A stretch of 32,000 bases of DNA from Gemmata obscuriglobus (GCF_008065095.1 NZ_CP042911.1:2040001-2072000), one strand, 5' to 3'; shown: positions 8,650-32,000, counted from the first letter of the stretch. A program made the numbers and translations. The notes: generated from the sequence alone by a model not told the origin.

Positions 8650-8656
8650 TTAGTTT

Positions 8657-14832: not shown

Positions 14833-14984
14833 GAGAGTTAAACGTCCGTCGAGGGGGAGGCAGGCGGATAACGTATTCTACCAGAAATTGTCGATGCCGC
14901 GCGCGACCGAGTCAAGCACACGACGCACGCCGGAGGCAGAACGAGCCGGCACGCACCCGCTTTAACCGGGTGAGCAACTTTTGC

Positions 14985-16208: not shown

Positions 16209-16289
16209 GGTGGTCTCGTATCGGATCGCGGTGATGCGTAACCGTGTCGTCGCCCTTGGCGGCACAGGGCGGGAGCCCTGTGCCGCCAG

Positions 16290-17384
16290 TCACCTGGAGA
16301 CGGCCGATTCCAGAACGGTCCGCACCAGCGGCTCGGGCACGTCGTCGAACAGCTTCACCTCTCCCAGGCGCGTGGGGAGGATGAACCGCATCTGTCCGCC
16401 CACGGCTTTCTTGTCGCGGCGCATCACGGCGATCAGGTCGTCGGCGGGCCACCGGGTCGGCGGGGCGGTCGGCAGCCCGAGCGCGTCGAGCAGCTTCGTT
16501 TGTCGGGAAACGAACTCGTCCCCGATCAGACCGAGCTTACGGGCCAGTTGGGCCGCGCACTCCATGCCGATGCTGACCGCTTCGCCGTGGAGAAGGGTGC
16601 CGTACCCGCCGCACGTCTCGAAGGCGTGCGCGAACGTGTGGCCGTAGTTGAGCACCGCCCGCAGGCCGGTGCGCTCGTACTCGTCCTGCTCCACGACATC
16701 GGCTTTGAGCCGACACGACCGCGTGACGACGCGGAGCAGCGCTCCCGGGTCGCGCGTGCGGACGGCGTGGGAGTTGGATTCGAGGTACGCGAAGAATGCG
16801 GCGTCGAGGATGACGCCGTATTTCACCACCTCGGCGAGCCCGCTGATGAACTCGCGCGCGGGCAGGGTGTTGAGGAACGCGAGGTCGATCCACACGCCGG
16901 CGGGCTGGTGGAACGAGCCGATGAGGTTTTTGCCCTTGGGGTGGTTAATGCCGGTTTTGCCGCCGACGCTCGAATCGACCATTGATAGGAGCGTGGTGGG
17001 CACCATCACGAGCGGCAGCCCGCGGTTGTACGTGGCGGCGGCGAACCCTGCGAGGTCGCCGATCACCCCGCCGCCGACCGCTACCACCGCGGTGCTGCGG
17101 TCCGCGGCGAGTTCGTAGAGGGCGTCGTACAGCCCCGCGAGCCGCTCCAGGCACTTCGACGCCTCGCCCGCGGGCACCACGGCGCTCCCGGCACGCAGGC
17201 CCGCTCTCGTAAGTGTGGCCTGAATCGATTCCGCGTGCGGCCAACTGTTGGAATCGCCCACCACGAGTACACTGGAAGTCTTCGGCAGCGCGGCCCGGAC
17301 GAACGCGCCGAGGTTGGCGGTGGCGCCGTGAGTGAGGGCGATGTCGTAGCTGCGCGACCCGAGGTTCACACGAACGGTTTCCAT
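16290..17384 (-). CDS. aroB: 3-dehydroquinate synthase
   Basis: VAVGGGVIGDLAGFAAATYNRGLPLVMVPTTLLSMVDSSVGGKTGINHPKGKNLIG, NYGHTFAHAFE and LHGEAVSIGM. The real start is METVRVNLG at 17384, or MRSMET at 17393. The ORF-track extension to 17945 is an artefact. Confidence 0.92.
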   Translation of the reverse strand: METVRVNLGSRSYDIALTHGATANLGAFVRAALPKTSSVLVVGDSNSWPHAESIQATLTRAGLRAGSAVVPAGEASKCLERLAGLYDALYELAADRSTAVVAVGGGVIGDLAGFAAATYNRGLPLVMVPTTLLSMVDSSVGGKTGINHPKGKNLIGSFHQPAGVWIDLAFLNTLPAREFISGLAEVVKYGVILDAAFFAYLESNSHAVRTRDPGALLRVVTRSCRLKADVVEQDEYERTGLRAVLNYGHTFAHAFETCGGYGTLLHGEAVSIGMECAAQLARKLGLIGDEFVSRQTKLLDALGLPTAPPTRWPADDLIAVMRRDKKAVGGQMRFILPTRLGEVKLFDDVPEPLVRTVLESAVSR

Positions 17385-17757
17385 GCTCCGCATTTCAGCG
17401 AGAACGCAGAGGTTTGCCAAGTGTCCGGCGGGCACGACGTTCGCGACACCGGCCGCCCCCTTCGTCGTGGCGAGCGTTCGCCCCCGTTGTCGGCACCGTT
17501 CCGGCCCTGGCGCGCGGAGCTTCCTGGGATCGTATGGGACGTTCCTCCGCGCTGGTCCCGATAAGACCGATGCGCTGCAACTACCTTGGGACCGGTCGCA
17601 GGCGCATAACGAACCCGGCACGATCCTGAGCCGTACCGGAACCGGTTGGGATTCCATGTTTGTGCCCAAGACACGGACGTAACCCGGCGGGGCGGGGCCG
17701 CGTTTCCGGAGCGACCCGCCGACCACAAGACCTTCCGCCCACGTGAGTTGAATCCTG

Positions 17758-20019
17758 ATGCCGACAGACGATAACGCCAATTCGGGAAGCCTGCTCCCGG
17801 ACCTGGGGGCGGGGCTGGTGGTGTTCCTCGTTGCGCTGCCGCTCTGCCTCGGGGTGGCGCTCGCGTCCAACGCGCCGCTCTTTTCGGGTCTGCTGGCCGG
17901 TGTCGTCGGCGGGTTGGTGGTCGGATTTTTGAGCGGATCGCACACCAGTATCAGCGGCCCGGCGGCGGGGCTGACCGCGGTCGCGGCCGCGCAGATCGCC
18001 GCGCTCGGGTCGTTCCAGGCGTTCCTCCTGGCCGTTGTGGTGGCCGGGCTGATTCAGATCGTGCTCGGCCTCGCCCGGGCCGGGTTCGTTGCCGCGTTCT
18101 TCCCGACCGCCGTTATTAAGGGGCTGCTCGCGGCGATCGGGGTCATTCTGGTTCTCAAGCAGATACCGCACGTTGTGGGACACGACCCGGACCCGGACGG
18201 GGACATGGCGTTCCAGCAGCCGGACCACCAGAACACCTTCACCGAACTGATCCAGACCATCGAGGACGTCCACCCGGGGGCCGCAACCGTCGGCCTCCTG
18301 TCGATCGTCATGCTGGTGTTGTGGGAGCGGTCCCGGCTGGCCCGGCTCCCCGTGCCGGCCCCGCTGGTCGTGGTCCTGTTCGGGGTGGGCCTGAGCCAAC
18401 TGTTCCGCCAGCTCGGCGGGGGATGGCCGATCGAGTGCGGGCACCTCGTGCAGGTGCCGGTGGCGGACAGCGTGTCCGGGTTCCTGGGGTTCCTTCAGTT
18501 GCCCGATTTCGAGCAGTTGAGCAACCCGGCCGTGTACATGGCGGGCCTCACCATCGCCGCCGCCGCGTCCATCCAGTCGCTGGTGACGCTCGAGGCCGTC
18601 GACCGCACGGACCCGCAGCGGCGCGCGTCGCCGGCGAGCCGGGAACTGCTGGCGCAGGGGTGCGGGAACGTCTTGCTGGGGTTCCTCGGCGGGCTCCCGA
18701 TCGTGACCGAAATCGTCCGCGGGACCGTGAACGTGAAGGCCGGGGGCCGGACCAAGTGGGCCGCCGTCGTCCACGGGGCGCTGCTGCTCGGGTGCGTGGC
18801 CCTGCTGCCGACCCTGCTGAACCTGATCCCGCTGTCGTGCCTGGCGGCCATTCTGCTGGTCACGGGGGTGAAGCTCGCCAGCCCGCGGCTGGTCCGAAGC
18901 ATGTGGGTCCAGGGCTGGCCCCAGTTCGCCCCGTTCATTCTGACCGTGGCCGCCATCGTGCTGACCGACCCGCTGATCGGGGTGCTGATCGGGCTCGCGG
19001 CCAGCGTCGTGTTCATCCTCCGCAGCAGCGTCCGCTGGCCGCTGCGGCTGATCGTCGAGCGGCACCTGTCCGAGAGCGTCACCCGGATCGCGCTGCCGAG
19101 CCAGGTGAGCTTCCTGAACCGGGCGGTGCTGGCCCGGTCGCTGGACGAGATCCCCCGCGGCGGGCACGTGCTGCTCGACGCCGAGCACACCGACTACATC
19201 GACCCGGACATCCTCTGGCTGATCCGCGAGTTCACGGAGCAAACGGCCCCGGCCCGCGGGGTGGAGGTGAGCCTGCGCGGGTTCCGCAGCGAGTACCGGC
19301 TCAGCGACCAGATCCAGTACGTGGACTACTCGACCCGCGACGTTCAAGAGGCGATGACCCCGGAGCAGGTGCTCCAGATCCTGCGCGACGGGAACGAGCG
19401 GTTCCGCGCCGGCCGCCAGCTCACCCGCGACCTGGGGCGCCAGGTGCGGGGCACCGCGGGCGGCCAGCACCCGCTGGCGGTGGTGCTCAGTTGCATCGAC
19501 TCCCGGACCCCGGCCGAACTCGTCTTCGACCTGGGGGTCGGGGACGTGTTCAGCGTCCGGCTGGCCGGGAACGTGGCCAGCCGCAAGGTGCTCGGGAGCA
19601 TCGAGTACGGGTGCGCGGTGGCGGGGGCGAAGCTGGTGCTGGTCATGGGGCACACCCGGTGCGGGGCCGTGACCGCGGCGGTCGATCTGATCTGCTCGGG
19701 TCGGACCGCGGCCGAGGTCACCGGGTGCCAGCACCTCGACCACATCATCGGGGACGTTCAGCGGGTGGTGGACCCGGTCGCGTGCCGCGCCGCCCACTGG
19801 CCCACCCCGGCGGACAAGGAGGCGTTCGTGAACGACGTGGCCCGGCGGAACGTGCTGCGGGTGGTGGAGTCGGTCGTCGAGCAGAGCGAGACGCTCCGCC
19901 GGCTGGTCCGGGAGGGCCGGATCGCCGTTGCCGGCGCGATGTACGACGTGAACACCGGGGAGATGGAGTTTTTGACCGCAGGAGCGACAGACCTCCCGCC
20001 CGCGAAGTCGGATCAGTAA
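17758..20019 (+). CDS. SulP-family anion transporter (with STAS domain) fused to a beta-class carbonic anhydrase
   Basis: The N-terminus LPDLGAGLVVFLVALPLCLGVALASNAP plus about 10 TM helices is SulP-like. A STAS-like segment follows. The C-terminus LRDGNERF..LSCIDSR..VMGHTRCGAV carries the Zn ligands of a beta-CA. Confidence 0.9.
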   Translation: MPTDDNANSGSLLPDLGAGLVVFLVALPLCLGVALASNAPLFSGLLAGVVGGLVVGFLSGSHTSISGPAAGLTAVAAAQIAALGSFQAFLLAVVVAGLIQIVLGLARAGFVAAFFPTAVIKGLLAAIGVILVLKQIPHVVGHDPDPDGDMAFQQPDHQNTFTELIQTIEDVHPGAATVGLLSIVMLVLWERSRLARLPVPAPLVVVLFGVGLSQLFRQLGGGWPIECGHLVQVPVADSVSGFLGFLQLPDFEQLSNPAVYMAGLTIAAAASIQSLVTLEAVDRTDPQRRASPASRELLAQGCGNVLLGFLGGLPIVTEIVRGTVNVKAGGRTKWAAVVHGALLLGCVALLPTLLNLIPLSCLAAILLVTGVKLASPRLVRSMWVQGWPQFAPFILTVAAIVLTDPLIGVLIGLAASVVFILRSSVRWPLRLIVERHLSESVTRIALPSQVSFLNRAVLARSLDEIPRGGHVLLDAEHTDYIDPDILWLIREFTEQTAPARGVEVSLRGFRSEYRLSDQIQYVDYSTRDVQEAMTPEQVLQILRDGNERFRAGRQLTRDLGRQVRGTAGGQHPLAVVLSCIDSRTPAELVFDLGVGDVFSVRLAGNVASRKVLGSIEYGCAVAGAKLVLVMGHTRCGAVTAAVDLICSGRTAAEVTGCQHLDHIIGDVQRVVDPVACRAAHWPTPADKEAFVNDVARRNVLRVVESVVEQSETLRRLVREGRIAVAGAMYDVNTGEMEFLTAGATDLPPAKSDQ

Positions 20020-20049
20020 CCGGGTACGCGACCCGCGAACGGGAAACCA

Positions 20050-20105
20050 CCAACGCCTCGTGTCCCGCCCAATGTTTTGCACCCGGGCGGGACACGAGGC
20101 GTTGG
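20050..20105 (+). terminator. perfect 21-bp stem hairpin downstream of the SulP-CA gene
   Basis: ccaacgcctcgtgtcccgccc (20050-20070) is the exact reverse complement of gggcgggacacgaggcgttgg (20085-20105), with a 14-nt loop. It is followed by ctttg, a weak T-tract, and starts 31 nt after the stop codon. Confidence 0.55.
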
Positions 20106-20219
20106 CTTTGCCGTCACGCAGTTGACCAATTGGGCAATCGGCCGGCCACGCGCGACGCATTCATTATCAGTTTCTTCTGCACTTCGACGGCGTGGCGGTG
20201 ATGCGATCTCTGCCCATGG

Positions 20220-20597
20220 TCAGCGAACGCCCCACCTGTACGTGGGCGTGTAGTAATACCTTGTGGCGTTGCCGTAGCGGATGGTAAACTTCACGTAGTA
20301 AGAAACCATTTGAAAATCCCCCAACCCGACGGCCCACGTCCCGTTCGTCGGGTTGAACGTCCCCTGAGCCACGCTGAGTTCGCGGCCGTTGGCGTCCAGC
20401 GAGACGATCCGGACATCGGTCAGCGTCTCGTAGGCATCGAGGCGGTACGTGCCGGTCAGTTCGGCCACCCTGGCCGTACCGCTGCGGTACTCCTTGCGCG
20501 TGGTGACTTGCTGGCCGAACGCGTGGGCCTCACCGGCCAGGGAGACGAAGAGCCCTGCGAACAGGGCGAAGGCCAAACAGAGCTTAATGCGCCGCAT
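20220..20597 (-). CDS. small secreted hypothetical protein, beta-rich with a Tyr-rich C-terminus
   Basis: Signal peptide MRRIKLCLAFALFAGLFVSLAGEAHA. GGAGG Shine-Dalgarno (reverse complement of 20606-20610) lies about 8 nt upstream of the ATG at 20597. Divergent from the sigma factor gene. Confidence 0.6.
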   Translation of the reverse strand: MRRIKLCLAFALFAGLFVSLAGEAHAFGQQVTTRKEYRSGTARVAELTGTYRLDAYETLTDVRIVSLDANGRELSVAQGTFNPTNGTWAVGLGDFQMVSYYVKFTIRYGNATRYYYTPTYRWGVR

Positions 20598-20807
20598 GTC
20601 TACGACCTCCAAAGGACCGTGCGACTTGAGCCAGGCCGGGGAAGTGGTCCCCACGTTGAGGTGCCCGGTTGCTGGCAGGAGTGAGTAAGAGCGGCCGGGC
20701 GATTCTCGGTGAACTTTTTCCGCAATTTTCAGCCGGCCGGTTTCCGGAGCGACTGTTCCCGTCCCGGCGCGTGCCGCGATACGATGTACTCATCGCGAGG
20801 GTTGCAA

Positions 20808-21494
20808 ATGTCCAACCTTGTCACATCGACTGCACTTTTGTCCGCGATGCTCGACCCCGAGCAACCGGAGGCGTGGGAGAAGTTCCAGAGTATATACGCA
20901 AAATGGATTAAGGGGCAGATTGTCGGCAAGCTGTCCAGCCCGCCCGGCAAGACGTTGCAGCAGGAGATCGACACCCTCGTCCACGACATCGTGAGCCGGA
21001 CCTGGGAGCAGTTCCGCGGGAAGCGCTACGACCCGCAGAAGCGGGCGCACCCGGGCAGCTTTCGGGCGTGGCTCAAGACGGTCGTGCAGTCGGTGACCGC
21101 CGACGCGGTCCGGTCGCGACGACGAACGACGCGCGCGGCGGGCGGGGATTCGGACTGGCTGGCCGAAGTGCCCGACGCCCACGCCGTGGCGACGGAGTTC
21201 GAGGCGACGTTCGTGGAGGATGTTGCCGAACGGGTGTTCAGCGAGTACCTGCTCGAGTGCAAGGAGTGGCAGCGCGTGGTGCTCGAGCGGCGCGGCCTCC
21301 GCCACGGCAACGCCGCCCCCAAACACGGCGAACAGTTCCCGAGCTTACCAGAGTTGAGCGCGGAGTTGGGCAAGACGGTCGCGACGATATCTGATTTTTT
21401 GACAGGCGCCCGCAGTGCTCTACAAAAGCGGTTCCGGGACGCGCTCGACGCGCTCGACATGTACGGCCTGCCGGCGCTGGCGAAACCGCTGTAG
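20808..21494 (+). CDS. ECF-type RNA polymerase sigma factor of the Ser/Thr-kinase-associated kind
   Basis: The region-2-like block is HDIVSRTWEQF..FRAWLKTVVQSVTADAVRSRRR. The region-4 HTH-like block is SLPELSAELGKTVATISDFLTGARSALQKRF. No anti-sigma gene follows; a kinase gene does. Start chosen at the ATG at 20808. Confidence 0.7.
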   Translation: MSNLVTSTALLSAMLDPEQPEAWEKFQSIYAKWIKGQIVGKLSSPPGKTLQQEIDTLVHDIVSRTWEQFRGKRYDPQKRAHPGSFRAWLKTVVQSVTADAVRSRRRTTRAAGGDSDWLAEVPDAHAVATEFEATFVEDVAERVFSEYLLECKEWQRVVLERRGLRHGNAAPKHGEQFPSLPELSAELGKTVATISDFLTGARSALQKRFRDALDALDMYGLPALAKPL

Positions 21495-21543
21495 CGGTTC
21501 CGCGGAGCCGGCGCACCGTCGCACCCTGGTCAAGAGTTCCGCC

Positions 21544-23451
21544 ATGAGCAGCGAAGTGGAAGGCCGCGCCGGGCCGTTGCTCGATCCGGGGGGCGGCGCC
21601 CCGACCGATACCGCCGGCCTGCCGGTTCCCAGCATTGCATTGTTACTCGAGCGACGGCGGCAGCGCGTCCGGCACATCAGCGCCACGCCGGACAAGGTCG
21701 GGCGCTACATCGTTAAAGAGGTCAAAGGCCGTGGGGGGATGGGGGTCGTGTATGCGGCCGTGGACCCCCACTTGAACCGCGACGTGGCCGTCAAAGTCAT
21801 TCGGCCCGAGTACGCCGAGTCGCCGGCGTTTCAGGCGCAGTTCGTCCAAGAATCGCGCGCGATGGCGGGCGTCAAGTCGCCGAACGTTGTGACCGTCCAC
21901 CACGCCGAAGTGGATGAAGCGGGGCACCTCTTCCTCGTGATGGAGCTTTCGCCGGGGACATCGCTGCAACACCTGCTCCGTCCGGGGCAGGCGCTGCCCC
22001 AGGCGACGGCGCTGGAACTGGGAATCGGCTTGGCTATCGGGTTAACGGCCGCTCACGCGCACGGCGCCATTCACGGCGATGTGAACCCGAACAACGTGCT
22101 CGTCGAGCCGGGGCCGGACGGGACCCGGGTCGCCAAGTTGACCGACTTCGGGCTGGCGCGGTTCGTGGAGGAGTCCGGTTCGAGCATCGGGTGCGGAACC
22201 CCCGGGTACCGGAGCCCCGAGCAAATCAACAGCAACCAAAACGTCACCGTCGCGAGCGACGTTTACAGTCTGGGCGCCGTACTGTACCGCATGCTCACGG
22301 GAAGACTGCCCGTTGCCGAGGAGCCGCTTCAGTTCCCGTCGCGGTCCCGCGTCCCGCGGCCGTTGCGTCGGCTTTGCGTCCGGTGCCTCCAGGCGGAGCC
22401 CCACGCGCGACCGTCGGCGGCAGATGTCGTACAGGCGCTCAAGGCGTACCGCGCCCGATGGCGGCGACGGCTCCTCGTCGCCGGCGTGCTGACCGCGACC
22501 GTCCTGGCGGGCGTTTTCGGCGCCACATGGTGGTTCAACATCAAGTCGGCCGCGACCATGAACAAGGTCCGTGCCGACATGCTGCACATCCGGGCGTCGT
22601 CGCTCATGACCTCCCCGGACCCGGCGAAGCGGGCGCAGGCGGAGCGCGAGTTCCGCGCGGCTCTGCCCGTGCTCCGCAAGCACGCCGCGCGGGGCGAGGT
22701 GGAGGCGACGATGGACCTGGCCGAGGTGCTGTGCAACCTGGCGACCCTCGCCGCGCCGGACGAGGGGCTGAACCTGTGCGACGAAGCCGAGCGCGCGCTG
22801 AACCAGACGGGCGTTCCCCACGACAACGACATCTGGGCGTTCACCTGGTTAACGCGGGGCACCGTCCTCCAAAACCTCGGGCAGACGGAGAAGTCGTTCG
22901 AGGATTTGACGCGGGCTCGAACGCGCTACGCCGAACTCGCCCCGACGGTCGATCGCGACGAGTTCAAACAGCACCACGCGACCGCCCGGCTGAACCTGGC
23001 GAAGCAGCTCATCCGCCGAAACGACTTCGCGGCAGCGGTTCAAGAGCTGGACGCGGCGGTGGCGATTTGGCAGTCGCTCCTGGCCGCGAACCGGACGCAA
23101 TACCTCACGCCCTGGATCGACGCACGATACACGCGCGGGATCGCGCGGTACGGGCACTCCTCGTCCCTACCGGCGGAGCCGGCCGCGGCCGAGCGGGCCA
23201 CGGCGATTCAAGATTTTTCCGAGGTGATCGCCGAACAAACGCGCTCGGTCGAGGCGGGAAACACGTCCGACGCCCTGTTGCTCCTGCGCGCCCTGATGAT
23301 GAGGCACGGCTTGTTCGTCCGCCAGGGCCGGGCCGCCGACGCACTCAAAGACGCCGAGCAGGCGATCGCAATCAACGACCGCTTCGCTCCCAACGTGCCC
23401 GGTCACCAGATCGACGCCCTGCGGAAGTACGTCCAAAAGTACCAGCACTGA
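21544..23451 (+). CDS. transmembrane Ser/Thr protein kinase with C-terminal TPR-like repeats
   Basis: Hanks motifs: GRGGMGVVY, VAVKVI, the catalytic loop IHGDVNPNNVLV, DFG in LTDFGLAR, and GTPGYRSPE. There is one TM segment (LLVAGVLTATVLAGVFGATWWF), then about 300 aa of helical repeats. Start chosen at the ATG at 21544. Confidence 0.9.
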   Translation: MSSEVEGRAGPLLDPGGGAPTDTAGLPVPSIALLLERRRQRVRHISATPDKVGRYIVKEVKGRGGMGVVYAAVDPHLNRDVAVKVIRPEYAESPAFQAQFVQESRAMAGVKSPNVVTVHHAEVDEAGHLFLVMELSPGTSLQHLLRPGQALPQATALELGIGLAIGLTAAHAHGAIHGDVNPNNVLVEPGPDGTRVAKLTDFGLARFVEESGSSIGCGTPGYRSPEQINSNQNVTVASDVYSLGAVLYRMLTGRLPVAEEPLQFPSRSRVPRPLRRLCVRCLQAEPHARPSAADVVQALKAYRARWRRRLLVAGVLTATVLAGVFGATWWFNIKSAATMNKVRADMLHIRASSLMTSPDPAKRAQAEREFRAALPVLRKHAARGEVEATMDLAEVLCNLATLAAPDEGLNLCDEAERALNQTGVPHDNDIWAFTWLTRGTVLQNLGQTEKSFEDLTRARTRYAELAPTVDRDEFKQHHATARLNLAKQLIRRNDFAAAVQELDAAVAIWQSLLAANRTQYLTPWIDARYTRGIARYGHSSSLPAEPAAAERATAIQDFSEVIAEQTRSVEAGNTSDALLLLRALMMRHGLFVRQGRAADALKDAEQAIAINDRFAPNVPGHQIDALRKYVQKYQH

Positions 23452-23484
23452 AAACGTCAGATGAACGACCAGCGAGGGCCGCGA

Positions 23485-24222
23485 ATGACCGAAGCGGAAT
23501 GGCTTGCGGTGACGGACTCGCGCCCGATGCTGGAGTTCATTCGGGGCAAGGTAAGCGAAAGGAAGCTGCGGCTGTTCGCCTGTGGCTGCGTTCGGCTCGC
23601 GGAGCGCCGCCTTCGCGACATGCCCACATCAGAATCGGGCTGCCACACTGCGTTGAACGTAGCAGAACAGTACGCCGACGGGTTAACAACAACCCGCTGG
23701 CTGTCCGAGGCGCGTGAAGATGCTCGCCTCGTCCATGCGCAGTTTCACACACTTGCTCGGCGGTACCTGGAAGAGGCGAGAGGAAAGCGGCGGCATTTCG
23801 TTCAGCAGGCGTATGCCGTTTCGGGCTGGGCGGAAGCGGCCGAGATGGCGGCATGGCCGGATCCACACATCTACCCCTACCCGTGGGAATCCGACTGCGG
23901 AGGTGGCGAGTACGATCTTGCCGACATGGGTTTACAGCAGGCGGCGTATGACAGGGTTTTCGGCGAATGTGGCGACGTGCTTCGCTGTGTCTTGGGCAAC
24001 CCCTTCCGTGCCGTTACCCTGCATCCGTCTTGGTTAACATCCACTGTTCTTGCACTTGCTGGTCAAATGTATGAGAACCGGGATTTCGCACCGATGCCGA
24101 TCCTGGCCGACGCCCTGCAAGACGCTGGCTGTGGCAACGACAACATCCTAAGCCACCTGCGCAGCGACGGCCCACACGTTAAGGGCTGCTGGGTGCTGGA
24201 TGGAGTGCTGGGCAAGTCGTAG
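23485..24222 (+). CDS. conserved hypothetical Cys-rich protein of a planctomycete/myxobacterial paralogous family
   Basis: The N-terminus is MTEAEWLAVTDSRPMLEFIRGKVSERKLRLFACGCVR. The C-terminus is LGNPFRAVTLHPSWLTSTVLALAGQMYENRDFAPMPILADALQDAGCGNDNILSHLRSDGPHVKGCWVLDGVLGK. I recognise this as a widespread uncharacterised family. The ATG at 23485 has a GAGGG upstream; 23461 is the alternative start. Confidence 0.7.
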   Translation: MTEAEWLAVTDSRPMLEFIRGKVSERKLRLFACGCVRLAERRLRDMPTSESGCHTALNVAEQYADGLTTTRWLSEAREDARLVHAQFHTLARRYLEEARGKRRHFVQQAYAVSGWAEAAEMAAWPDPHIYPYPWESDCGGGEYDLADMGLQQAAYDRVFGECGDVLRCVLGNPFRAVTLHPSWLTSTVLALAGQMYENRDFAPMPILADALQDAGCGNDNILSHLRSDGPHVKGCWVLDGVLGKS

Positions 24223-24388
24223 CGAATCTGTCACACCGGTGGAGCACATGCTTGCGAAGGTCCGGGCGGCTCAAAGTGTGTTCGAGTTACCCTCCCATTT
24301 CCTGCTCGCTTTGAATCGGATAAGGTTGCTTCGTTATTGTGCAGTTTCCCGTGCGGCTTTGGGCTACGACCTGTGTTTGTGATTGATG

Positions 24389-25456
24389 TAGGACTTACGT
24401 AGTTGACTTTTGGGTAAGTAGGTATGTAGGTGCGGCGAGGTAGGTTCGCACCGCTTCGCGCACGATGGCCGTCTTGGCCGCGAACCAACTGACGCCGGAC
24501 TTGAGCCGGTGCCACTCGAGCCGCAGGAACGCGCGGATCGCGAGCCCGATGTGGACCGCTTGGGCCCGGCTCATGCGCACCTGGCACCGGTCCACGTGGC
24601 AATGCTGCTTGAGGCCCCGGTGATACTCCTCGATGCCCCACGCGTGCCCGGCCAGAACCGCACGAGTGGCCTCGTCCATGTCGAGGTCGTTGGTGATCCA
24701 ATGCTCCGTGCCCCCATCACCGGTGGCGATCCGGAACGCCTTCACCAATCCGAACCCCTCCAGGTGCACCACCGTACCGGCGGCCCCGATCGGGCACCCC
24801 TCGATGGCCCGATTGCCCGTGCGATCCGGGTTCACCCGCCGGTTGCTCCGCACCCGGGTCAGGAAGTGCCACCCCAGGGCCCGCACCGCCTTCAGGTTGT
24901 CCTTGCCCGAGTACCAGGTGTCGAACAGTACCACCCGGGGCGACAGGTCCCGTCCCTTGGCGACCGCCAGCATGGCTCGGAAGTGGTCGTTCTTGGTCTC
25001 GGCTCGGGCCGGGTCGGCGAGCCGGTAATCACACGGTACCAGGGCGGCCCCGTCGGTCCACAGCAGGGTCACCAGCCCGATCCCGCTCACCACCCGGCGG
25101 TGCCGCCCGGACCAGCACCGGCGCACCAGCCCCATGTGCCGGGCGAACGGCTTGTCCAGCACCGAGTCGTCGAGCACCACGGCACCGCCCGGGCGGACCG
25201 ACGACCGGGCTTCGTCCCACAACGCCGCTGGGTCCGGTTCCAGCCGGTGCAGCAGTCGGGTGAACGCATCATGCGCGGGCGCCGTCGGATGGTCCGGTTG
25301 GGCTCGCGCGGCTTCCGCGGCCGACGCCACCTTGGGGGTGGCGATCAGGAATTGGATGTAGTCCTCGGCGCTCGCACGTGGTGCGTTCATGGCCCGATCA
25401 TAGACCAACAACACACCATGCGCAAATCCTGCGCCAGCGCAACTGCGTAAGTCCTA
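24389..25456 (-). mobile_element. complete insertion sequence, 1068 bp, single DDE transposase, IS701/IS4-like (family assignment tentative)
   Basis: The terminal inverted repeats are taggacttacgTagttg (24389-24405) and the reverse complement of caactGcgtaagtccta (25440-25456), matching at 16/17 positions. It is flanked by a 5-bp direct target duplication, TGATG, at 24384-24388 and 25457-25461. Confidence 0.88.
24395..25390 (-). CDS. DDE transposase of the IS
   Basis: DYIQFLIATPKVASAAEAARAQP..PAHDAFTRLL, VLDDSVLDKPFARHMGLVRRCWSG, VLFDTWYSGKDNLKAVRALGWHFLTRV and WGIEEYHRGLKQHC give a DDE pattern shared with IS701-like transposases. The stop codon lies inside the left IR. Confidence 0.9.
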   Translation of the reverse strand: MNAPRASAEDYIQFLIATPKVASAAEAARAQPDHPTAPAHDAFTRLLHRLEPDPAALWDEARSSVRPGGAVVLDDSVLDKPFARHMGLVRRCWSGRHRRVVSGIGLVTLLWTDGAALVPCDYRLADPARAETKNDHFRAMLAVAKGRDLSPRVVLFDTWYSGKDNLKAVRALGWHFLTRVRSNRRVNPDRTGNRAIEGCPIGAAGTVVHLEGFGLVKAFRIATGDGGTEHWITNDLDMDEATRAVLAGHAWGIEEYHRGLKQHCHVDRCQVRMSRAQAVHIGLAIRAFLRLEWHRLKSGVSWFAAKTAIVREAVRTYLAAPTYLLTQKSTT

Positions 25457-25742
25457 TGATGTACTCCTGAGTGAAGTACGTTACGATGGCGAGGCAACAT
25501 CCAGGGTCTATGAGTAGCGGCATCCAGCACAGCCACTTTACCATCGCCACCGGGAAAAAACACATGCCCAATGAGGCGATCATCCCTCCTAGAACTGGGG
25601 CTATCGAAGCAGATCTTCTCCAGAATGCCCAGCGTAACACTATTGCGTAGTTTCCGATGATGATAAATGATCCTACGGAAAATAATAACAAGCCAATCAC
25701 CTCAAAGAAAAATACTACCGACGGGTGTTCGGCTGCTGTCAT
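25398..25742 (-). CDS. small 3-TM membrane protein whose 3' end was replaced by the IS insertion (native part 25457-25742)
   Basis: ATG at 25742 with GAGGG about 8 nt upstream, and three hydrophobic helices. G+C is visibly low. Residues 96-114 are encoded by IS sequence. Removing the IS and one TSD copy restores ..TQEYINHKHRS with the stop at 24364-24366, giving 101 aa. Confidence 0.55.
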   Translation of the reverse strand: MTAAEHPSVVFFFEVIGLLLFSVGSFIIIGNYAIVLRWAFWRRSASIAPVLGGMIASLGMCFFPVAMVKWLCWMPLLIDPGCCLAIVTYFTQEYIIGLTQLRWRRICAWCVVGL

Positions 25743-26030
25743 TTCGTTGCCCTCGGAACAGCGTCATCGCAATTATACCGAGTTCTCCGGAAGCCCGAAA
25801 CGGCTGAGGAAATTAGTTCACACAATCGGGTGTACTAACTGTTGTGGCGGTTCTACGTGGATCAGGTAGTGAGGCCGCCGTTTCCGGACAAAAGCAGTCC
25901 CGGCGTGGAAGCCGTGCTGGCGGCACTCGACGGGCACAGAAATGGTCCGCTCGCTTGCGGTTGCCGATACTACGTGAAGATCGCAGCATCGGTCGCCGCA
26001 CGATAACCGGTTCGGTGTTGAGAGCCGAAG

Positions 26031-27071
26031 ATGCCCGCCCCATCGCCCGCACCCGATGACGAGCCCGCGAAGCCGTCTCCTCCGCCGTGGCGCGAGTTCG
26101 CGCGGTCGCCGCTCGTGCCGTTCGCGCTGGCGGCGTCGGCGGGGTTGCTCGCGGACCGTTACATCGGCGTGCCGCTCGGGGCCGCGTTGGTGGTCGCGGC
26201 GGTCGCGCTCGTGGGGTGGTGCTTCACCCGCCGCGCGACGCCGCAAACGGCCCTCGGGTGGCTGCTCGTGTCTACCGCCACCCTGGCCGCCGCACATCAC
26301 CACGCGCACCGGCACACGTTCGCCCCCGACGACGTTTCGACACTGGCGAAGGCCGCGCCGGAAGTCGTCCGCGTGCGGGGCACGCTGGCCGAGGAGCCGG
26401 ACCGGTTCCGGCCGCCGCGGTTCGACCCGCTGCTGACCATGCAGCGCGAGGCGACTAGCACGACGGTTCTGGAGATCAGCGAAGTAGACGGCGCCACCGG
26501 CTGGCGTTCGGCATCCGGGCGCGTGCGGTTGTCGGTGGAAGGGCGGCTCGACGACTTGCACTGCGGCGACGCGGTTCAGGTCGTCGGTCGGCTGTCGCTC
26601 CCCGAAGGGCCGGCCAACCCGGGCGAGCGCGACTACCGCGGGTCACTCCTCGACAAGCGGATCACTGCGGACCTGCGGGTGAAGCGCTCGGCGGACTCGG
26701 TGGTGCGGATCGAGGAGGGCTGGCGGGCGTCGCTGTTCGGGTGGCTGGCGGTGCTGCGCGGGTGGGGCACGCGGGCGCTCGCGCAGGCGCTTCCCAAGGA
26801 CGAAGCGGGACTCGCGACGGCCCTGCTGCTGGGCGACAGCACCGCGCTGGACCGCGAGGAGTGGGACGCCTACGTTCGCACCGGGGTGATTCACGTCCTG
26901 GCGATCTCGGGCCAGCACCTGGTCATTCTGGGGGCGTTCGCGTGGGCCGTGCTCCGGCTGTGCGGGTTCCGCAACCGCTACTCGGCGTGGGCGGTGGCGC
27001 TGCTGCTGCTCGGCTACGCGCTGCTCACCGGGGCGCGACCGTCGGCGATGCGAGCGGCCGTGATGGAGTAG
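26031..27071 (+). pseudogene. comEC: comEC/rec2 DNA internalisation channel gene, 5' fragment only, truncated by element insertion
   Basis: The N-terminal TM helices plus an OB-like DUF4131 region (VRVRGTLAEEPD..RVRLSVEG..GDAVQVVGRL) are followed by the start of the competence domain (LLLGDSTALDREEWDAYVRTGVIHVLAISGQHL..LLTGARPSAMRAAVM). A stop then follows immediately at 27069-27071. Full-length ComEC proteins continue for several hundred more residues. Confidence 0.8.
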
Positions 27072-27133
27072 ACACTTATGGTTGTGTTTGCTATTATAAC
27101 TCCGGTACGAAAGTTTGCCCGGAGTGACCCGCC

Positions 27134-28837
27134 ATGAACACCCCGAATCCCGTCGCCTTCTCCTACATTCGCTTTTCACAGGCGTCACAGGCGAAGGGCG
27201 ACAGCGTGCGGCGGCAAACCGAACTGGCCGAACTCGGGGCGAAACAACTCGGCGTAAAGCTGGACCCGTCCACGTTCCAAGACCTCGGCGTTTCGGGATT
27301 CACCGGCGAACACCGGAACAACCCCGACCGGCACGGGCTGGCGATGTTCCTTCTGGCGCTGGAAAAGGGGAAGGTGAAGCGGGGCGATTACCTGCTTGTT
27401 GAGAACTTGGACCGACTTTCCCGTGAACACGTCATGAAGGCGCTTGGCCTTCTGCTGAACCTTGTGAACGCCGGTGTCCGGGTGGTGCAACTCTCCCCGT
27501 CCCTCATGGTCTTTGACGAGAACTCGCAGCCGATGGCGCTGATGATGGCGGTCATGGAACTGAGCCGGGGGAACAGCGAAAGTGCGATGAAGGCCGAGCG
27601 GTGTGGGAAGGCGTGGCGTGAGAAGAAGAAGGAAGCTCGGGAGGAGGGAACGCCAACAACCGCTATGCTCCCGGCTTGGCTGGAGTTGTACGGCGGGAAG
27701 ATCGTGACGAAGCCCGACGCAGCGAAAGCCGTGAAGCGGGTGTACGAACTGTGTGTTGCGGGTTACGGGCATCTCGGCATCTGCAAGAAGCTGGCGGAAG
27801 AGGGACACGCACCCATTGGCAAATCGGGCCAGTGGGTGCGGTCTTACGTCGCACACCTCCTGACGTGTCGGCAAGTGCTGGGGGAGTATCAGCCCATCGT
27901 GAAGAAGACCCGGAAGCCCGACGGCAACCCGATTCCGAACTACTACCCGGCGGTTGTGACCGAAGAACTTTACCACCAAGCGCAGCACGCCAAGAGCCTT
28001 CGGGACGGCACCACGGGCCGACCACCGACCCGCACAAACTTTAACTACTTCACGGGGCTGATGTGCCGGGCCGGTAACCCCGAAGACAAATATTTCACGC
28101 AGACCTGTGTTGAGACGAAGAAGAACCGGCGACAGGTGAACTACCAGAGCCAGAAGGCGAACCAGGGCGTTGCGGCTGCGTCCTGCTTCCCCCAAGACGT
28201 TCTTGACCGGGCGTTCTTCAAACACTTCCGCATCCTACAGCCCAAAGACGTTCTCGGCGAAGACACCACGTCGGAAGAGCTATCGGCCGTCACCGGAGAG
28301 CTAGAAGCGGTTCAAACGAAGCTGGCCGAACTGACTGCCGAGATGGAAACTGGCGAAGTGAAGCGGCTCGTTCCTCTGCTACGGAAGTGGGAAGAGAAGG
28401 CGGAAGCACTCACGACGAAACAGAACGCCTTGCGGCAGAAGGCGGCGCACCCGAAGGCCGAAGCGTTCGGCGAGACGCAACACTTACTTGGCGGGTTGCT
28501 CTGGGACGCCAAGCCGAAGAAGGGCGAACCCGACAACTCCGACGAGATGAAGCACCGGTTGCGGGCGTGTCTGAGGCGGGTGATTGATCGGATGCACTGC
28601 ACGTTCGGCGGGACACGGAACCGGCGGCGGGCAATCGTTCAGATCACCTACCACGACAGCACGACCGTTAACGTGTTGCTGGTTGACTTCTGGCCGCAAC
28701 GGGCGCACGGTACCGCCGGGGGCGGAAAAAAGGTGTTCAGTGAGGCGAAGACGGTAAGCACCTGGGGGACGCTGGATCGGGTGATTGATGAGGAAGAGGC
28801 CAACGGGCTGTTTGAGAAGACCTTCAAAGGGGAGTGA
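27134..28837 (+). CDS. large serine recombinase (serine integrase)
   Basis: The resolvase-type catalytic domain shows VAFSYIRFSQASQAKGDSVRRQ (nucleophile Ser in YIRFS) and GDYLLVENLDRLSR. A recombinase domain follows (GHLGICKKLAEEGHAPIGKSGQWVRSYVAHLLTCRQVLGEY). The C-terminal coiled coil is ELEAVQTKLAELTAEMETGEVKRL..EEKAEALTTKQNALRQK. 567 aa. Confidence 0.92.
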   Translation: MNTPNPVAFSYIRFSQASQAKGDSVRRQTELAELGAKQLGVKLDPSTFQDLGVSGFTGEHRNNPDRHGLAMFLLALEKGKVKRGDYLLVENLDRLSREHVMKALGLLLNLVNAGVRVVQLSPSLMVFDENSQPMALMMAVMELSRGNSESAMKAERCGKAWREKKKEAREEGTPTTAMLPAWLELYGGKIVTKPDAAKAVKRVYELCVAGYGHLGICKKLAEEGHAPIGKSGQWVRSYVAHLLTCRQVLGEYQPIVKKTRKPDGNPIPNYYPAVVTEELYHQAQHAKSLRDGTTGRPPTRTNFNYFTGLMCRAGNPEDKYFTQTCVETKKNRRQVNYQSQKANQGVAAASCFPQDVLDRAFFKHFRILQPKDVLGEDTTSEELSAVTGELEAVQTKLAELTAEMETGEVKRLVPLLRKWEEKAEALTTKQNALRQKAAHPKAEAFGETQHLLGGLLWDAKPKKGEPDNSDEMKHRLRACLRRVIDRMHCTFGGTRNRRRAIVQITYHDSTTVNVLLVDFWPQRAHGTAGGGKKVFSEAKTVSTWGTLDRVIDEEEANGLFEKTFKGE

Positions 28838-28841
28838 CCAA

Positions 28842-29048
28842 ATGGAAGAGTTGTGGGCCGAGTGCGAACGCCAGCAGTGGCGAAACGGGGAGAACGTTCA
28901 ACGTCTGGTTGTTGCCCTGGAACACGCCGGGCAACACGAACGAGCGGCAACGGTACAACGCCACTACACTGAAGCAAACATAAATATAATCCAGCGAATG
29001 TGCAGCCGGTGGGGGCATCCGGCTACTGAGGAACCGTCGTCTAGCTGA
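28842..29048 (+). CDS. hypothetical 68-aa protein immediately downstream of the recombinase
   Basis: The ATG lies 5 nt after the recombinase stop and is preceded by AAAGGGGAG. Composition is protein-like. I recognise no family. Confidence 0.4.
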   Translation: MEELWAECERQQWRNGENVQRLVVALEHAGQHERAATVQRHYTEANINIIQRMCSRWGHPATEEPSSS

Positions 29049-29083
29049 ATGCTAACCGTGTTGTGTCGCTATGGTAAGGGTCA

Positions 29084-29299
29084 TTACTCGTCCTCTTCGG
29101 CTTCCGCATCTGACGCCTCAAGCTCGTCACGGATCATTTCGAGAGCGTCAATCATCTCTTGGGCGACGGCCGGATCAAAGAAGGACAATTTGACTTGCAA
29201 CCGATGCTTGGCTGCCGGATCAAACACCGAGAACAAAAGAACTCGGTTGCCGTCGTGCGTAATGCCGTCGGTGGCCAAAATCATTGCGTCTAGCGTCAT
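29084..29299 (-). CDS. hypothetical 71-aa protein with an acidic tail
   Basis: ORF ending ..DELEASDAEAEEDE. Convergent with the recombinase operon. No recognisable family. Confidence 0.45.
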   Translation of the reverse strand: MTLDAMILATDGITHDGNRVLLFSVFDPAAKHRLQVKLSFFDPAVAQEMIDALEMIRDELEASDAEAEEDE

Positions 29300-29330
29300 G
29301 TGGCGTCACTCACGATGTGTCATTATGGAT

Positions 29331-29358
29331 GCCCCGCCAAAAGCGGGGCGTTTCTGTT
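29331..29358 (+). terminator. intrinsic-terminator-like hairpin, plus-strand orientation
   Basis: gccccgc-caaaa-gcggggc followed by gtttctgtt. A U-rich tail is present only when read on the plus strand. It lies between two minus-strand ORFs. Confidence 0.45.
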
Positions 29359-29671
29359 ATGCTGCTGCTAACCGTGTCACACTCAGGGCCGGTAGCAAGG
29401 CTAGGTAAGTCTCTGTCGTTTCCTCTGCCCACTTCTTCGCATCCGTCATCGTCTTGAACCCGAGGCGTTCCAGTCTCACCCACGGGCTAGGCTTCGTGTC
29501 CTCTGGGTCAAAGTCCTTCCACTGGAAGGTTACCTTGTGCGGCCCACCCGTCTGTTTCAGGATGGTGACCTTTACCCCGCACTCGTCTTCACCGTTGGGC
29601 GGGAGCAGGGCGAAGACATGATCACGCCCCATTCCGTCCTTCTGCCAGTTCAGTTTCATGTTGCCCATCAC
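29357..29671 (-). CDS. hypothetical 104-aa protein
   Basis: ORF with GTG/ATG starts at 29671/29668 and a protein-like sequence (KVTILKQTGGPHKVTFQWKDFDPEDTKPSPWVRLERLGF). No recognisable family. Confidence 0.5.
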   Translation of the reverse strand: MMGNMKLNWQKDGMGRDHVFALLPPNGEDECGVKVTILKQTGGPHKVTFQWKDFDPEDTKPSPWVRLERLGFKTMTDAKKWAEETTETYLALLPALSVTRLAAA

Positions 29672-29687
29672 GATGCGTCACGTTTGA

Positions 29688-29807
29688 CTAAAAATCTGCA
29701 TCGTATGATTGAATGGCCCGCATGTGCCCGTCGTTGTTAACCTCTTTGAGTTGACAGGAGCGGTCAGCCTTGCCCACCCGCTTTACGATTGCTTTCACAG
29801 TTGCCAT
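29688..29807 (-). CDS. possible 39-aa ORF
   Basis: MATVKAIVKRVGKADRSCQLKEVNNDGHMRAIQSYDADF, with GGGAG 7 nt upstream of the ATG. The longer 72-aa version in the ORF track has an implausible N-terminus. Confidence 0.25.
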   Translation of the reverse strand: MATVKAIVKRVGKADRSCQLKEVNNDGHMRAIQSYDADF

Positions 29808-30169
29808 GTTGCGAACTCCCACCGTTCGCCGAAAACGAAAAAACGGCGAACTCTCCGGTTGGAAAGCCGCCGCAGTGGGATGCGGAGGAGTGTGCAACAC
29901 GCACACTTACCGATATGGGTTACCGCTTCATGCGGGCCATCGGGTGACAGAACTTGGAACCCGACCGGGTTCTACCCTGACCGAAGCCAGTGAACCGGGC
30001 GTCTGTCGTCGTCTACCACTTGTCGCAGTGGGCGGGCGGCCAGATAAGCTGCGTTAGGCTGGTCGGGAGCAGCTTACCAAGACAACTTTGGTATCCGCAA
30101 CCCCAAAACGAGAAAAATCGCCAAGACCCGCAACAGCAGGCAGCCAACAGTATTGGGATGAAAGTACGC

Positions 30170-30727
30170 CTACTTGAAGCGGTCTGCCGGGTGCGTCTCC
30201 GACATCAGCCAATCTGCCGACGCATCGCCCTCATCCCTTCGCTCCGCAGCCAGTGCCCACGGCATGTCCGGTGGAACGGAGAAGACGAACTTGGCTCGTG
30301 CTGCGGCGACTTCTGAAATCACCTTGTCCGGGCTGGTGAGCGGGACGTATCCGGCTCTCCCCCACAGTTCCACTGTGAAGCAGTCGGGCGGAATGACGCC
30401 GTGAAAGAACGACCACCACTTAGCCTGTCCTGCCGGGTTCAGACCGTTACGAATCGTCTTGGCCGGAACGCCCAGTCGCTTCCAGGCGGCCAGTGCGGGT
30501 TCAAGCCGCACGTCGCCGTCCGGGATGCGGCAGGCGTAGCGGACGGCGGTCTTTACGGGCAACCTCGTTGACCAACAGAGGAGCGTGTCAGGATCGGTCT
30601 GGGTTGTTAGGCTGACGGCCGTTAACGTCTGTTTCAGGTCGTGGGTGGCAATCTCGCCCTTGCTCAACCCCTCCGACCAAATCGGGGGGAGGTGGACGAG
30701 AGGGGAATAATGAAAGAGAACCGGCAT
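30170..30727 (-). CDS. hypothetical 185-aa protein, orphan
   Basis: ATG at 30727 with AGGTG 5 nt upstream. Globular-looking sequence with no low complexity. I cannot assign a family with confidence. Confidence 0.65.
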   Translation of the reverse strand: MPVLFHYSPLVHLPPIWSEGLSKGEIATHDLKQTLTAVSLTTQTDPDTLLCWSTRLPVKTAVRYACRIPDGDVRLEPALAAWKRLGVPAKTIRNGLNPAGQAKWWSFFHGVIPPDCFTVELWGRAGYVPLTSPDKVISEVAAARAKFVFSVPPDMPWALAAERRDEGDASADWLMSETHPADRFK

Positions 30728-30787
30728 GGTTTCACCTGCGGCGAGGATAGAGCATCGAAGATTTGCAGACTACTGGACAGGGCCGGA

Positions 30788-30900
30788 CTAACTAATATAA
30801 ATACGATTTAATTGATTAAACTTACTGCAACCAAAAGTAAATTATGTTAGTGTGTAATAAAATCTATTCACACATTCGTTATCATGATCGTGATTATTGT
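30788..30900 (-). promoter_or_regulatory. AT-rich segment, about 25% G+C by hand count, upstream of the 185-aa gene; candidate promoter/operator region
   Basis: On the minus strand, TTGGTT (reverse complement of 30829-30834), a 17-nt spacer and TTAAAT (reverse complement of 30806-30811) resemble a sigma-70 promoter. The near-palindromic tatcatgatcgtgatta carries a GATC site. Confidence 0.35.
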
Positions 30901-31073
30901 TCCGCAGTCTCTTGTTTCGCCCGTTCCCGGCCCTTGCCCAAAGAAGCCCGGCATCCGTGCCATCGGGACGCTGGGACAGCGAGCTTAAGTCCGAGTTCGA
31001 TGCCGCCGATGCCGGAGCAGAGGGACAGAACGTTGAAGGAAGATGCAGCCACATACATGTTGGCCCCGGTTGG

Positions 31074-31868
31074 TTATTGAATGTGCGGCGTAATCAGCAC
31101 CTCTTTGTAGAACCGAGTCGGCCCACCCAGCCCACGCCCGAACACAATTGTCTGGATGCGGCAGGTCTTGTAACGGTTCCAGATGGCCGGATGGTCGTCG
31201 TAGGACATTAGCCACGGTGACTGCCGGGCCAACACGATGTCCCGAAGCATCAGATGGTCAAGTTGGGTAAAGCCGTGTGCGTAATACTTGCGCCGAGCGG
31301 CTCCGACGTACGGTGGATCACAATACAGCACGCTGTCGTCGTCTTTGAGCACCTGCCGGAAGTCCAAGTTGGTGATCTTGGCGTCTCTGAGGAGCCGGTG
31401 GGCGTTACGGTACTGCTGCTCTTTCGTGTGCAGTTTCGCTCGTGAGCCGCAGCGGGGGTTAAACGACACGCCCTTCTGCCCGTACGACCAGGCGTGGAGG
31501 GCGCACAAGCGCCAGCCGAGTTCCTTCAGGTCGGCCACGGTTCCGTTGGCGATGGACTGGTGGTACTCCTCCCACTTGTCCCGCTCGCAGTGCTCACCGT
31601 ACAACTTGTCGATCAGGAACTCGTGGTCGTCCCGAATGGTCTTCCAGAAGGCGTAAACCGGACGGTATACGTCGTTCAACCAGACGTCCGCCCACGGCAG
31701 GCGGTCCAGCAAGGTCAGGGCCACGGCCGCACCCCCGGCGAACGGCTCGGTGTACGAAACACCTGGCCGCATGTGCTGGGTGAGCAGGTGCAGGAAGCGG
31801 TGGACGATCCGGCGCTTGCCACCGAGCCACGGGAGCGGGTAGATGAAGTTGCTCTTGTTCTTCGGCAC
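31074..31868 (-). CDS. DNA N6-adenine methyltransferase, Dam/D12 class
   Basis: YPLPWLGGKRR, the SAM motif YTEPFAGGAAV and the catalytic motif LYCDPPY. GTG start with GAGGCG upstream. Confidence 0.9.
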   Translation of the reverse strand: MPKNKSNFIYPLPWLGGKRRIVHRFLHLLTQHMRPGVSYTEPFAGGAAVALTLLDRLPWADVWLNDVYRPVYAFWKTIRDDHEFLIDKLYGEHCERDKWEEYHQSIANGTVADLKELGWRLCALHAWSYGQKGVSFNPRCGSRAKLHTKEQQYRNAHRLLRDAKITNLDFRQVLKDDDSVLYCDPPYVGAARRKYYAHGFTQLDHLMLRDIVLARQSPWLMSYDDHPAIWNRYKTCRIQTIVFGRGLGGPTRFYKEVLITPHIQ

Positions 31869-31939
31869 GGTGACGCCTCGTGAGACGGAACACCCGGCGG
31901 TAGCTTTTCCGCCGAGTGGAAATCGAAACTGAAAGTGCG

Positions 31940-32000
31940 TTAGCCCTGGGGAATGATGACGATGATGTCGTTGCCGAGCTTGATCGGGACCGTTTGGTTT
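31940..32000 (-). CDS. 3' end of an unidentified gene running out of the window
   Basis: The minus-strand frame reads ..NQTVPIKLGNDIIVIIPQG, then TAA (31940-31942). Only 19 codons are visible. Confidence 0.3.
   Translation of the reverse strand, partial: NQTVPIKLGNDIIVIIPQG

Follow-up and report, generated by a model that had tools for sequence, protein, structure and literature searches.

The 32,000-nt stretch of the Gemmata obscuriglobus genome analysed here (NZ_CP042911.1:2040001-2072000, hereafter the window) contains the 5' part of comEC, the gene for the DNA-uptake channel, joined to a low-GC island whose first gene encodes a large serine recombinase (LSR). Comparison with related genomes suggests that comEC of G. 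obscuriglobus is probably a recent, irreversibly truncated pseudogene stub at the edge of the LSR island, which would make the locus a case of gene loss and not a reversible switch. A preliminary description, made from the sequence of the window, had proposed that the island splits comEC and may act as an excision-dependent on/off switch for the gene. Taken as a whole, the locus most likely records an ordinary gene loss, cleanly documented, at the junction with a mobile element, onto which a chromosome-scale rearrangement has been overlaid.

The remnant of comEC is an open reading frame (ORF) at 26031-27071 on the + strand. It has 346 codons, 345 native ones and a final GAG, before the stop codon TAG at 27069-27071, and its protein ends in ...LLTGARPSAMRAAVME. 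Pfam placed DUF4131 at residues 47-219, and positions 1-84 of the 270-position Competence domain at residues 265-345; the Lactamase_B (metallo-β-lactamase) domain was absent from the 346 aa in the same Pfam analysis. Because the Competence domain is partial and Lactamase_B is absent, the 346-aa ORF is a 5' fragment of comEC. A ComEC/Rec2 channel protein contains DUF4131, a full Competence domain, and a metallo-β-lactamase domain; the stub has only DUF4131 and Competence positions 1-84. The intact ComEC proteins of the Gemmataceae have about 846-850 aa and all of these domains, which holds for all relatives that are not fragments. The closest reference is Gemmata algarum, in which comEC is intact and encodes 846 aa (P0109, locus L091).

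The end of the homology was determined by base-by-base alignment with the G. algarum gene. The two sequences correspond, at 95% identity, through 27066 (...GTGATGG); position 27067 is A in place of T; GT at 27068-27069 is common to both; then no similarity follows. Positions 27066-27069 were thus taken as the junction (J1) and putative crossover point. The GC content is 0.73 in 26001-27000 and 0.53-0.62 per 500-bp interval across 27001-32000. The coincidence of the end of homology with the stop codon and the GC shift indicates that the breakpoint is real and not a chance feature. The alignment also showed that the last codon and the stop codon of the stub derive from island DNA.

The LSR gene (27134-28837, + strand; QEG27024.1, GobsT_17770) encodes 567 aa and is apparently intact. 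It is the first gene of the island, it starts 62 bp past the comEC stop, and it reads away from the junction. Pfam identified a Resolvase domain at residues 8-168 (E 1e-15) and a Recombinase domain (PF07508) at residues 194-288 (E 2e-11), and the residues R13, S15, D93, R94, and R97 were invariant across a 25-homologue alignment. The protein therefore has several features of the LSR class: a catalytic domain with the serine and the Arg/Asp residues, a Recombinase domain after it, and a length of more than 400 aa. Judged from its sequence, the enzyme looks functional. LSRs also have a zinc ribbon with an embedded coiled coil at the C-terminus; for this part there was no Zn_ribbon_recom match even at E <=1, and only a weak leucine-zipper match was found, at residues 377-409. 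A sequence search of the PDB returned no match to the LSR. On these points the preliminary description was accurate, as to the frame that stops at 27069-27071 after 346 codons, the change of base composition at the stop, and the 567-aa recombinase close by that reads away.

Serine integrases commonly adjoin their attachment site and often target ORFs. The layout at J1 is of the attL type: the 5' part of the host gene abuts the element end that carries the integrase gene. As the breakpoint lies only 64-68 bp upstream of the recombinase start codon, J1 can be read as an attL, and its position suggests that it is probably the recombinase's own attL-type site, made by this LSR. The spacer at 27070-27133 (+ strand) has no similarity to comEC and contains a hairpin, CTCCGG-N13-CCGGAG, read from the sequence. 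Its position suggests that this island end may hold the P' arm of the attachment site together with the recombinase promoter and ribosome-binding site. The proposal of an attL junction thus stands in part: a foreign low-GC island with an intact LSR is joined to the middle of comEC, but neither an attR nor the 3' half of the gene was found in the loci and protein sets searched. A search for the P arm, as the reverse complement of the 34 bp past the junction, gave nothing convincing in the G. obscuriglobus DNA examined.

Relatives of the LSR are distant. The nearest ones other than itself were 42-48% identical in searches of 1.84 billion cluster representatives and a 5.8-billion-sequence database, and no homologue above 48% identity was present among the 5.8 billion proteins. 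No relatives were found in IMG/VR. A comEC fragment beside a homologous recombinase was seen in none of 80 metagenomic loci (from a set of at least 80; homologues 29-52% identical). Since there is no close relative and no comEC-adjacent homologue, the natural target of the LSR cannot be deduced by comparison.

The sequence past the junction was extended by joining the window to the loci L001, L089, and L094, walked by exact look-ups, into a composite of 60,752 bp in window orientation. The island runs on through 31869-32000 and past the window end for at least 28.7 kb; it extends at least 33.7 kb past the junction, with a GC content of 0.56-0.68 throughout, and its far end lies beyond the composite. 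A tblastn search of the composite with G. algarum ComEC found only the stub and a short relic upstream of it, and no comEC 3' part within 33.7 kb past the junction. The lack of such a fragment anywhere further along the replicon had been named in the preliminary description as what would refute the switch, and as far as could be tested this is the situation encountered.

The native downstream flank of comEC was located by comparison with G. algarum. In that species, about 1.7 kb of non-coding or pseudogene DNA follows comEC, and then come genes for TatD, a 421-aa protein, MCP, DUF4240, and a protein kinase. The G. obscuriglobus orthologues, from TatD to the kinase, are QEG31315, 31314, 31313, 31312, and 31311 (AWM36101-36104). 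Some 4,290 protein accessions separate them from the stub (QEG27023, next to the LSR, QEG27024), and their order runs opposite. The locus tags agree: C1280_03140 adjoins the TatD flank, C1280_24355 belongs to the island, and the gap between them is about 4,240 tags. From the numbering of locus tags and accessions, the distance between the stub and the TatD flank was estimated as roughly half a chromosome. In the complete genome the flank is at CP025958.1:715975-736832 (locus L092), at about 0.72 Mb. L092 becomes homologous to G. algarum from about 8258 onward, a point 311 bp past the stop codon of comEC in that species. No comEC sequence was detected in this locus by tblastn with ComEC. Relative to G. 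algarum, comEC nt 1040-2541 plus 311 bp, about 1.8 kb in total, are gone at the TatD flank. A comEC 3' part of the kind that would mark an attR was thus found neither within 33.7 kb of the junction nor at the native downstream flank.

Protein searches gave the same picture. Three proteins make up the 90% cluster of G. algarum ComEC, and the only one of them from G. obscuriglobus is the 346-aa stub. No C-terminal ComEC of G. obscuriglobus was present among the best 120 matches (>=660 bits) to the 504-aa ComEC C-terminus, as judged from the absence of any match on a contig as long as its chromosome (about 9.0 Mb), and the other matches on megabase-scale contigs were full-length ComEC, including P0091 (9.24 Mb) and Frigoriglobus (9.83 Mb). 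A 507-aa C-terminal ComEC, P0106, was considered as the missing half and rejected; it comes from contigs of metagenome or SRA assemblies, not from G. obscuriglobus, and begins near codon 396.

These results bear directly on the proposed switch. In that reading, a discrete attL-attR element would be followed by an intact comEC 3' half past attR, and its excision would restore comEC. The anatomy of the junction fits, with an intact LSR 62 bp from the break that reads away from it; the stub is little decayed (dN/dS 0.105, see below); and split comEC genes with both kinds of junction do occur in other Gemmataceae, at a different site. A switch requires that both gene halves are intact and that excision rebuilds the ORF, which is not what was seen at the G. 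obscuriglobus locus: no 3' part lies within 33.7 kb, some 4,240 locus tags separate the stub from the native flank, which is inverted and devoid of comEC sequence, and the C-terminal half was missing from both the 90% cluster and the best 120 matches. Excision would no longer restore comEC because the 3' part is gone from the cognate flank and the two flanks are far apart and inverted. An excision-dependent comEC switch is therefore very improbable for this strain.

The course of events that fits an irreversible truncation may be outlined as follows. The LSR would have acted on the island's attachment site and a target within comEC, and the attL-type junction would be the product. After this step, or together with it, a megabase-scale rearrangement of the inversion type took place, with the loss of about 1.8 kb (comEC nt 1040-2541 and the adjoining 311 bp). 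The stub was thereby parted from its original downstream DNA, which now lies roughly half a chromosome away, inverted and without comEC. Excision of the island could then no longer rebuild comEC, and the DNA-uptake channel would be lost in the strain.

Another explanation is that the island never entered comEC as a free element. It may have sat elsewhere, by the ATP-grasp/PAS-kinase locus, and a large inversion may have joined its recombinase-proximal end to the middle of comEC, with the second breakpoint produced either by the LSR acting in cis on a pseudo-site in comEC or by illegitimate recombination. If an ancestor like G. algarum underwent one inversion, broken at comEC nt 1039 and at the island end next to the recombinase, the observed gene order and orientations do result, but only together with an extra 1.8-kb deletion at the other junction. 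The breakpoint lies at the very end of the island, where the recombinase site would be, and the 0/80 result for homologous-recombinase loci indicates that comEC is not a family-wide target of these recombinases. However, integrases of the LSR family normally recombine only attP with attB, and neither half-site was detected in the sequence at L092 near 8257. The present data do not separate this explanation from an integration followed by an inversion; on balance we regard inversion without prior integration as unlikely, and integration into comEC with subsequent rearrangement is still the preferred account.

The surroundings of the TatD flank indicate that this part of the chromosome has been rearranged more than once. 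In the G. palustris-like genomes (L176 and L177), ATP-grasp and luciferase-like genes lie about 10 kb downstream of comEC. In L092, near 8257, the same genes stand next to the TatD flank, back to back and with comEC missing in between; a PAS hybrid kinase gene and a 103-aa ORF lie between the ATP-grasp/luciferase-like genes and the TatD flank at this second junction. Because the ATP-grasp/luciferase-like set and the TatD set meet in L092, the 3' boundary of comEC has served as a breakpoint for two or more large rearrangements within the genus.

The age of the truncation was approached through the divergence of the stub. Compared with codons 1-345 of G. algarum comEC, the stub has 96.8% amino acid and 95% nucleotide identity, with 11.5 non-synonymous and 39.5 synonymous differences; dS is 0.149 and the ratio of non-synonymous to synonymous substitution rates (dN/dS) is 0.105. 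A dN/dS of 0.105 at a dS of 0.149 points to the bulk of the divergence having arisen under purifying selection, so that the truncation would be recent on the scale of dS 0.149. That the stub is still useful is the less likely alternative. This alternative holds that the 346-aa product is a functional short ComEC-like protein kept by selection. The low dN/dS would agree with it, and three assemblies list the product among their annotated proteins (AWM39852.1, QEG27023.1, VTS03362.1). However, the product ends at position 84 of 270 in the Competence domain and lacks the metallo-β-lactamase domain, whereas all non-fragment relatives have about 846-850 aa. Its final codon and stop come from island DNA, and a truncation that is recent on the scale of dS 0.149 would leave an equally low dN/dS. 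Selection for a functional stub is accordingly given very little credence.

Several points weigh against the conclusion that comEC was recently and irreversibly lost at an LSR junction. The low dN/dS also fits a stub that is still expressed and selected. A short or frameshifted comEC 3' remnant may exist elsewhere in the genome, as the evidence consists of protein searches and two loci. Neither attR nor the P arm was found, and the relatives of the LSR are at most 48% identical, so an attL at J1 is something we infer. In addition, no outgroup polarises the rearrangement, and the G. palustris-like genomes carry different genes after comEC.

The DNA upstream of comEC is largely native. By blastn, the flank at 14010-24226 is colinear with G. 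algarum: 14010-17423, 17745-23587, and 23990-24226 correspond to L091 1-3412, 3564-9389, and 9712-9948, with 77-93% identity. Colinearity resumes over 26004-27069, and only 24227-26003 is specific to G. obscuriglobus compared with G. algarum. Distant relatives had suggested that the whole of 17.4-25.8 kb is an insertion, which the colinearity with G. algarum rejects. The species-specific part includes a 1,068-bp insertion sequence (IS) element at 24389-25456 (- strand), with a DDE transposase ORF at 24395-25414 (Pfam DDE_Tnp_1 and DDE_5) and 17-nt terminal inverted repeats at 24389-24405 and 25440-25456. It occupies intergenic sequence ahead of comEC, where it clips a hydrophobic ORF of 114 aa (25398-25742); G. 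algarum lacks it. Four independent Logan assemblies break at 25428; since short-read assemblies break at its end, the IS element is multicopy in the genome.

Between the IS element and comEC, at 25809-25938 (+ strand), lies the comEC relic mentioned above. It is about 130 bp long and derives from the metallo-β-lactamase region (aa 639-682; tblastn with P0109 residues 639-682, E 3e-7). It lies on the same strand as comEC, about 90 bp before the start codon, and is 78% identical by blastn to G. algarum comEC nt 1943-2047. This divergence exceeds that expected at dS 0.149, and the relic is therefore either older than the truncation or foreign. It is not the missing comEC 3' half, and its origin is unexplained.

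Some further features of the comEC neighbourhood were recorded. A 253-aa protein without a Pfam match is encoded at 23461-24222 (+ strand), and its homologues, in loci that include L023 and L024, lie near comEC in varied positions and orientations. The gene is upstream of comEC in G. obscuriglobus and G. algarum, downstream in the G. palustris-like genomes (L176 12632-13243), and upstream on the opposite strand in Fimbriiglobus; in L017 it is inside a 1.26-kb comEC insert (973-1623). Local direct and inverted repeats of 73-141 nt with 81-99% identity are present at 1779-1994 and 8534-8650 of the window, and similar ones at 18535-18661 of L092; these may be a dispersed short repeat family. A tRNA-Ser gene (anticodon TGA) was identified by ARAGORN at 5812-5902 (- strand) and is unrelated to the comEC finding.

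On the island side, the LSR gene is followed by a region (28838-31073) with four called genes, 28842-29048 (+ strand) and 29084-29299, 29357-29671, and 30170-30727 (- strand). These orphan ORFs had no significant Pfam, PHROG, or PADLOC match. Next is an orphan N6-adenine methyltransferase gene of the Dam type (D12) at 31074-31868 (- strand; Pfam MethyltransfD12, E 1e-21), which also matches the PADLOC MTase_II and orphan-MTase models. The low-GC cargo of orphan or phage-like genes including Dam, noted in the preliminary description, was thus confirmed by the GC content, the lack of family matches for the orphans, and the D12 match.

Beyond the window, the island continues with a 193-aa Recombinase-like fragment and more orphan ORFs with 44-bp repeats. 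These are followed by a PAPS-reductase/SspD-like gene, a DUF6900 gene, a cI-like helix-turn-helix gene, a gene for a leucine-rich-repeat-like protein (judged from its sequence, with no family match), and DISARM. The DISARM system is of class 1 and complete, consisting of DrmC, DrmB, DrmA, an LmuB-like ATPase (671 aa), DrmMI, and DrmD. It occupies L094 118-16019 and L089 448-6778 (composite about 44.4-60.6 kb), and the PADLOC assignments agree with the NCBI names. The PADLOC E-values were 0 for DrmD, DrmMI, and DrmA, 2e-69 for DrmB, and 9e-72 for DrmC; the island DISARM matches as a whole ranged from 0 to 1e-63. The island, which includes phage-like genes, is a defence island and not an obvious complete prophage.

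Two observations concern the part of the island just past the window. The 193-aa ORF (L004 7232-7813, + strand; 659-1,240 bp past the window end) has a weak Recombinase match (E 2e-5 in Pfam; PHROG integrase, E 2e-5), and may be what is left of a second serine recombinase, or else an accessory protein that binds DNA. The 44-bp direct repeat has two copies, 91% identical and 264 bp apart (L001 4072-4115 and 4336-4379), which flank a 66-aa ORF about 5.1-5.4 kb past the window end. Four independent short-read assemblies end there, and the repeat pair may be an origin or iteron-like feature.

Interruptions of comEC were also surveyed in other genomes. Eighty comEC loci (at least 80 exist), none of them from G. 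obscuriglobus, were fetched from species-representative genomes of Gemmataceae and other planctomycetes. In these loci comEC was intact or cut by contig ends only, with the exception of L017 and its 1.26-kb insert. A different picture came from the proteins matched by the stub: 12 of 70 cluster representatives end right after ...CQLSFLSVF, at about codon 396, and most of the non-ComEC tails that follow have the motif WT(E/K)xK(E/D)RWY(N/D). The proteins and loci of this site are P0001, P0004-P0006, P0008, P0009, P0012, P0014, P0017, P0027, P0028, and P0034, and L085, L086-L088, and L017. Neighbours of P0012 include a small terminase and a 2,074-aa protein, and those of P0014 a phage lysozyme and a methyltransferase. 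The other side of the site is represented by the C-terminal fragment P0106, which follows McrBC, an N6-methyltransferase, a helicase, and a PIN protein, and was seen in three samples. At the right-hand junctions near codon 396 the target is present as a degenerate copy, GCHLSYPSAKIIVLIWG, compared with GCQLSFLSVFVLIWG in the native gene.

Prophages or defence islands are present at this second site on many metagenome contigs of the Gemmataceae. The mobile-element contexts of the breaks near codon 396 show that comEC is a recurrent landing site in the family, at a position different from that in G. obscuriglobus. As both junction types exist there, a true split-gene system is more likely to be represented by the site near codon 396 than by the break in G. 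obscuriglobus. A further observation was made in L015, a metagenome-assembled Gemmataceae genome from palsa soil, where an intact comEC is directly followed by three relics of its aa 604-697 stretch (10483-10608, 11167-11325, and 11405-11587). They represent the same stretch of comEC as the relic at 25809-25938 of the window. The arrangement hints at another att-like site, the third, at which part of comEC would be duplicated by elements that integrate.

A broader reading would make comEC a family-wide landing pad for mobile elements in the Gemmataceae, with at least two independent sites and a possible third (aa 604-697), and its 3' boundary a recurrent breakpoint for chromosome rearrangements on the megabase scale. 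Of the two sites, codon 345 would serve the orphan LSR of G. obscuriglobus, and about codon 396 a widespread family of prophages and defence islands whose end is conserved. In its strongest version, the LSR itself may have driven the G. obscuriglobus inversion by acting in cis on the comEC site. This broader reading is considered quite unlikely.

Insertion of serine-recombinase elements into comEC has been described before. Phi1207.3 (Tn1207.3), Phi10394.4, and Tn1207.1 use a GA dinucleotide as their target, within comEC in Streptococcus pyogenes and within celB in S. pneumoniae (PMC4260502). As in G. obscuriglobus, an element with a serine-family recombinase lies inside the comEC coding sequence. 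comEC as a target of serine-recombinase prophages is thus already known from the streptococci, and G. obscuriglobus adds a new phylum. The streptococcal elements are phages of Firmicutes with a defined GA target, both junctions, and shown transfer, whereas the element in G. obscuriglobus is from the Planctomycetota, its LSR relatives are at most 48% identical, and the second junction and the 3' half are missing. The comparison was made at the level of the gene.

The systems named alongside the switch proposal are the Listeria prophages of the A118/phi10403S type in comK (active lysogeny), SPbeta in spsM, and the skin element in sigK, in which both gene halves lie in cis and excision rebuilds the gene. 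They share with G. obscuriglobus an LSR gene beside the attachment site in a host ORF, and the comK target is also related to competence (established knowledge; see also PMC3556126). They differ from G. obscuriglobus in that the cognate flank there lacks the 3' half and lies about half a chromosome from the other flank. A third comparison is with comM of Acinetobacter, in which islands that carry defence systems are common, among them the AbaR/Tn7-like and other islands of A. baumannii (PMC11472951). In both species a mobile island with anti-phage defence, DISARM in G. obscuriglobus, interrupts a gene for natural transformation. The comM islands target a helicase gene and use Tn7-like transposition, whereas in G. 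obscuriglobus the target is the comEC channel, the enzyme is a serine recombinase, and a later chromosomal rearrangement is superimposed.

In summary, the locus adds a new phylum to the known cases in which mobile elements with defence systems have landed in a competence gene. It agrees with the view that transformation and mobile elements are in conflict, and involves no new mechanism. A more useful lead comes from other Gemmataceae and their site near codon 396, since both junction types occur there and split-gene and excision behaviour could be tested. G. obscuriglobus is widely used as a planctomycete model; its type strain would be without a functional DNA-uptake channel, and natural transformation is not expected in it. 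G. algarum, with its intact comEC, would be a better place to look for natural transformation.

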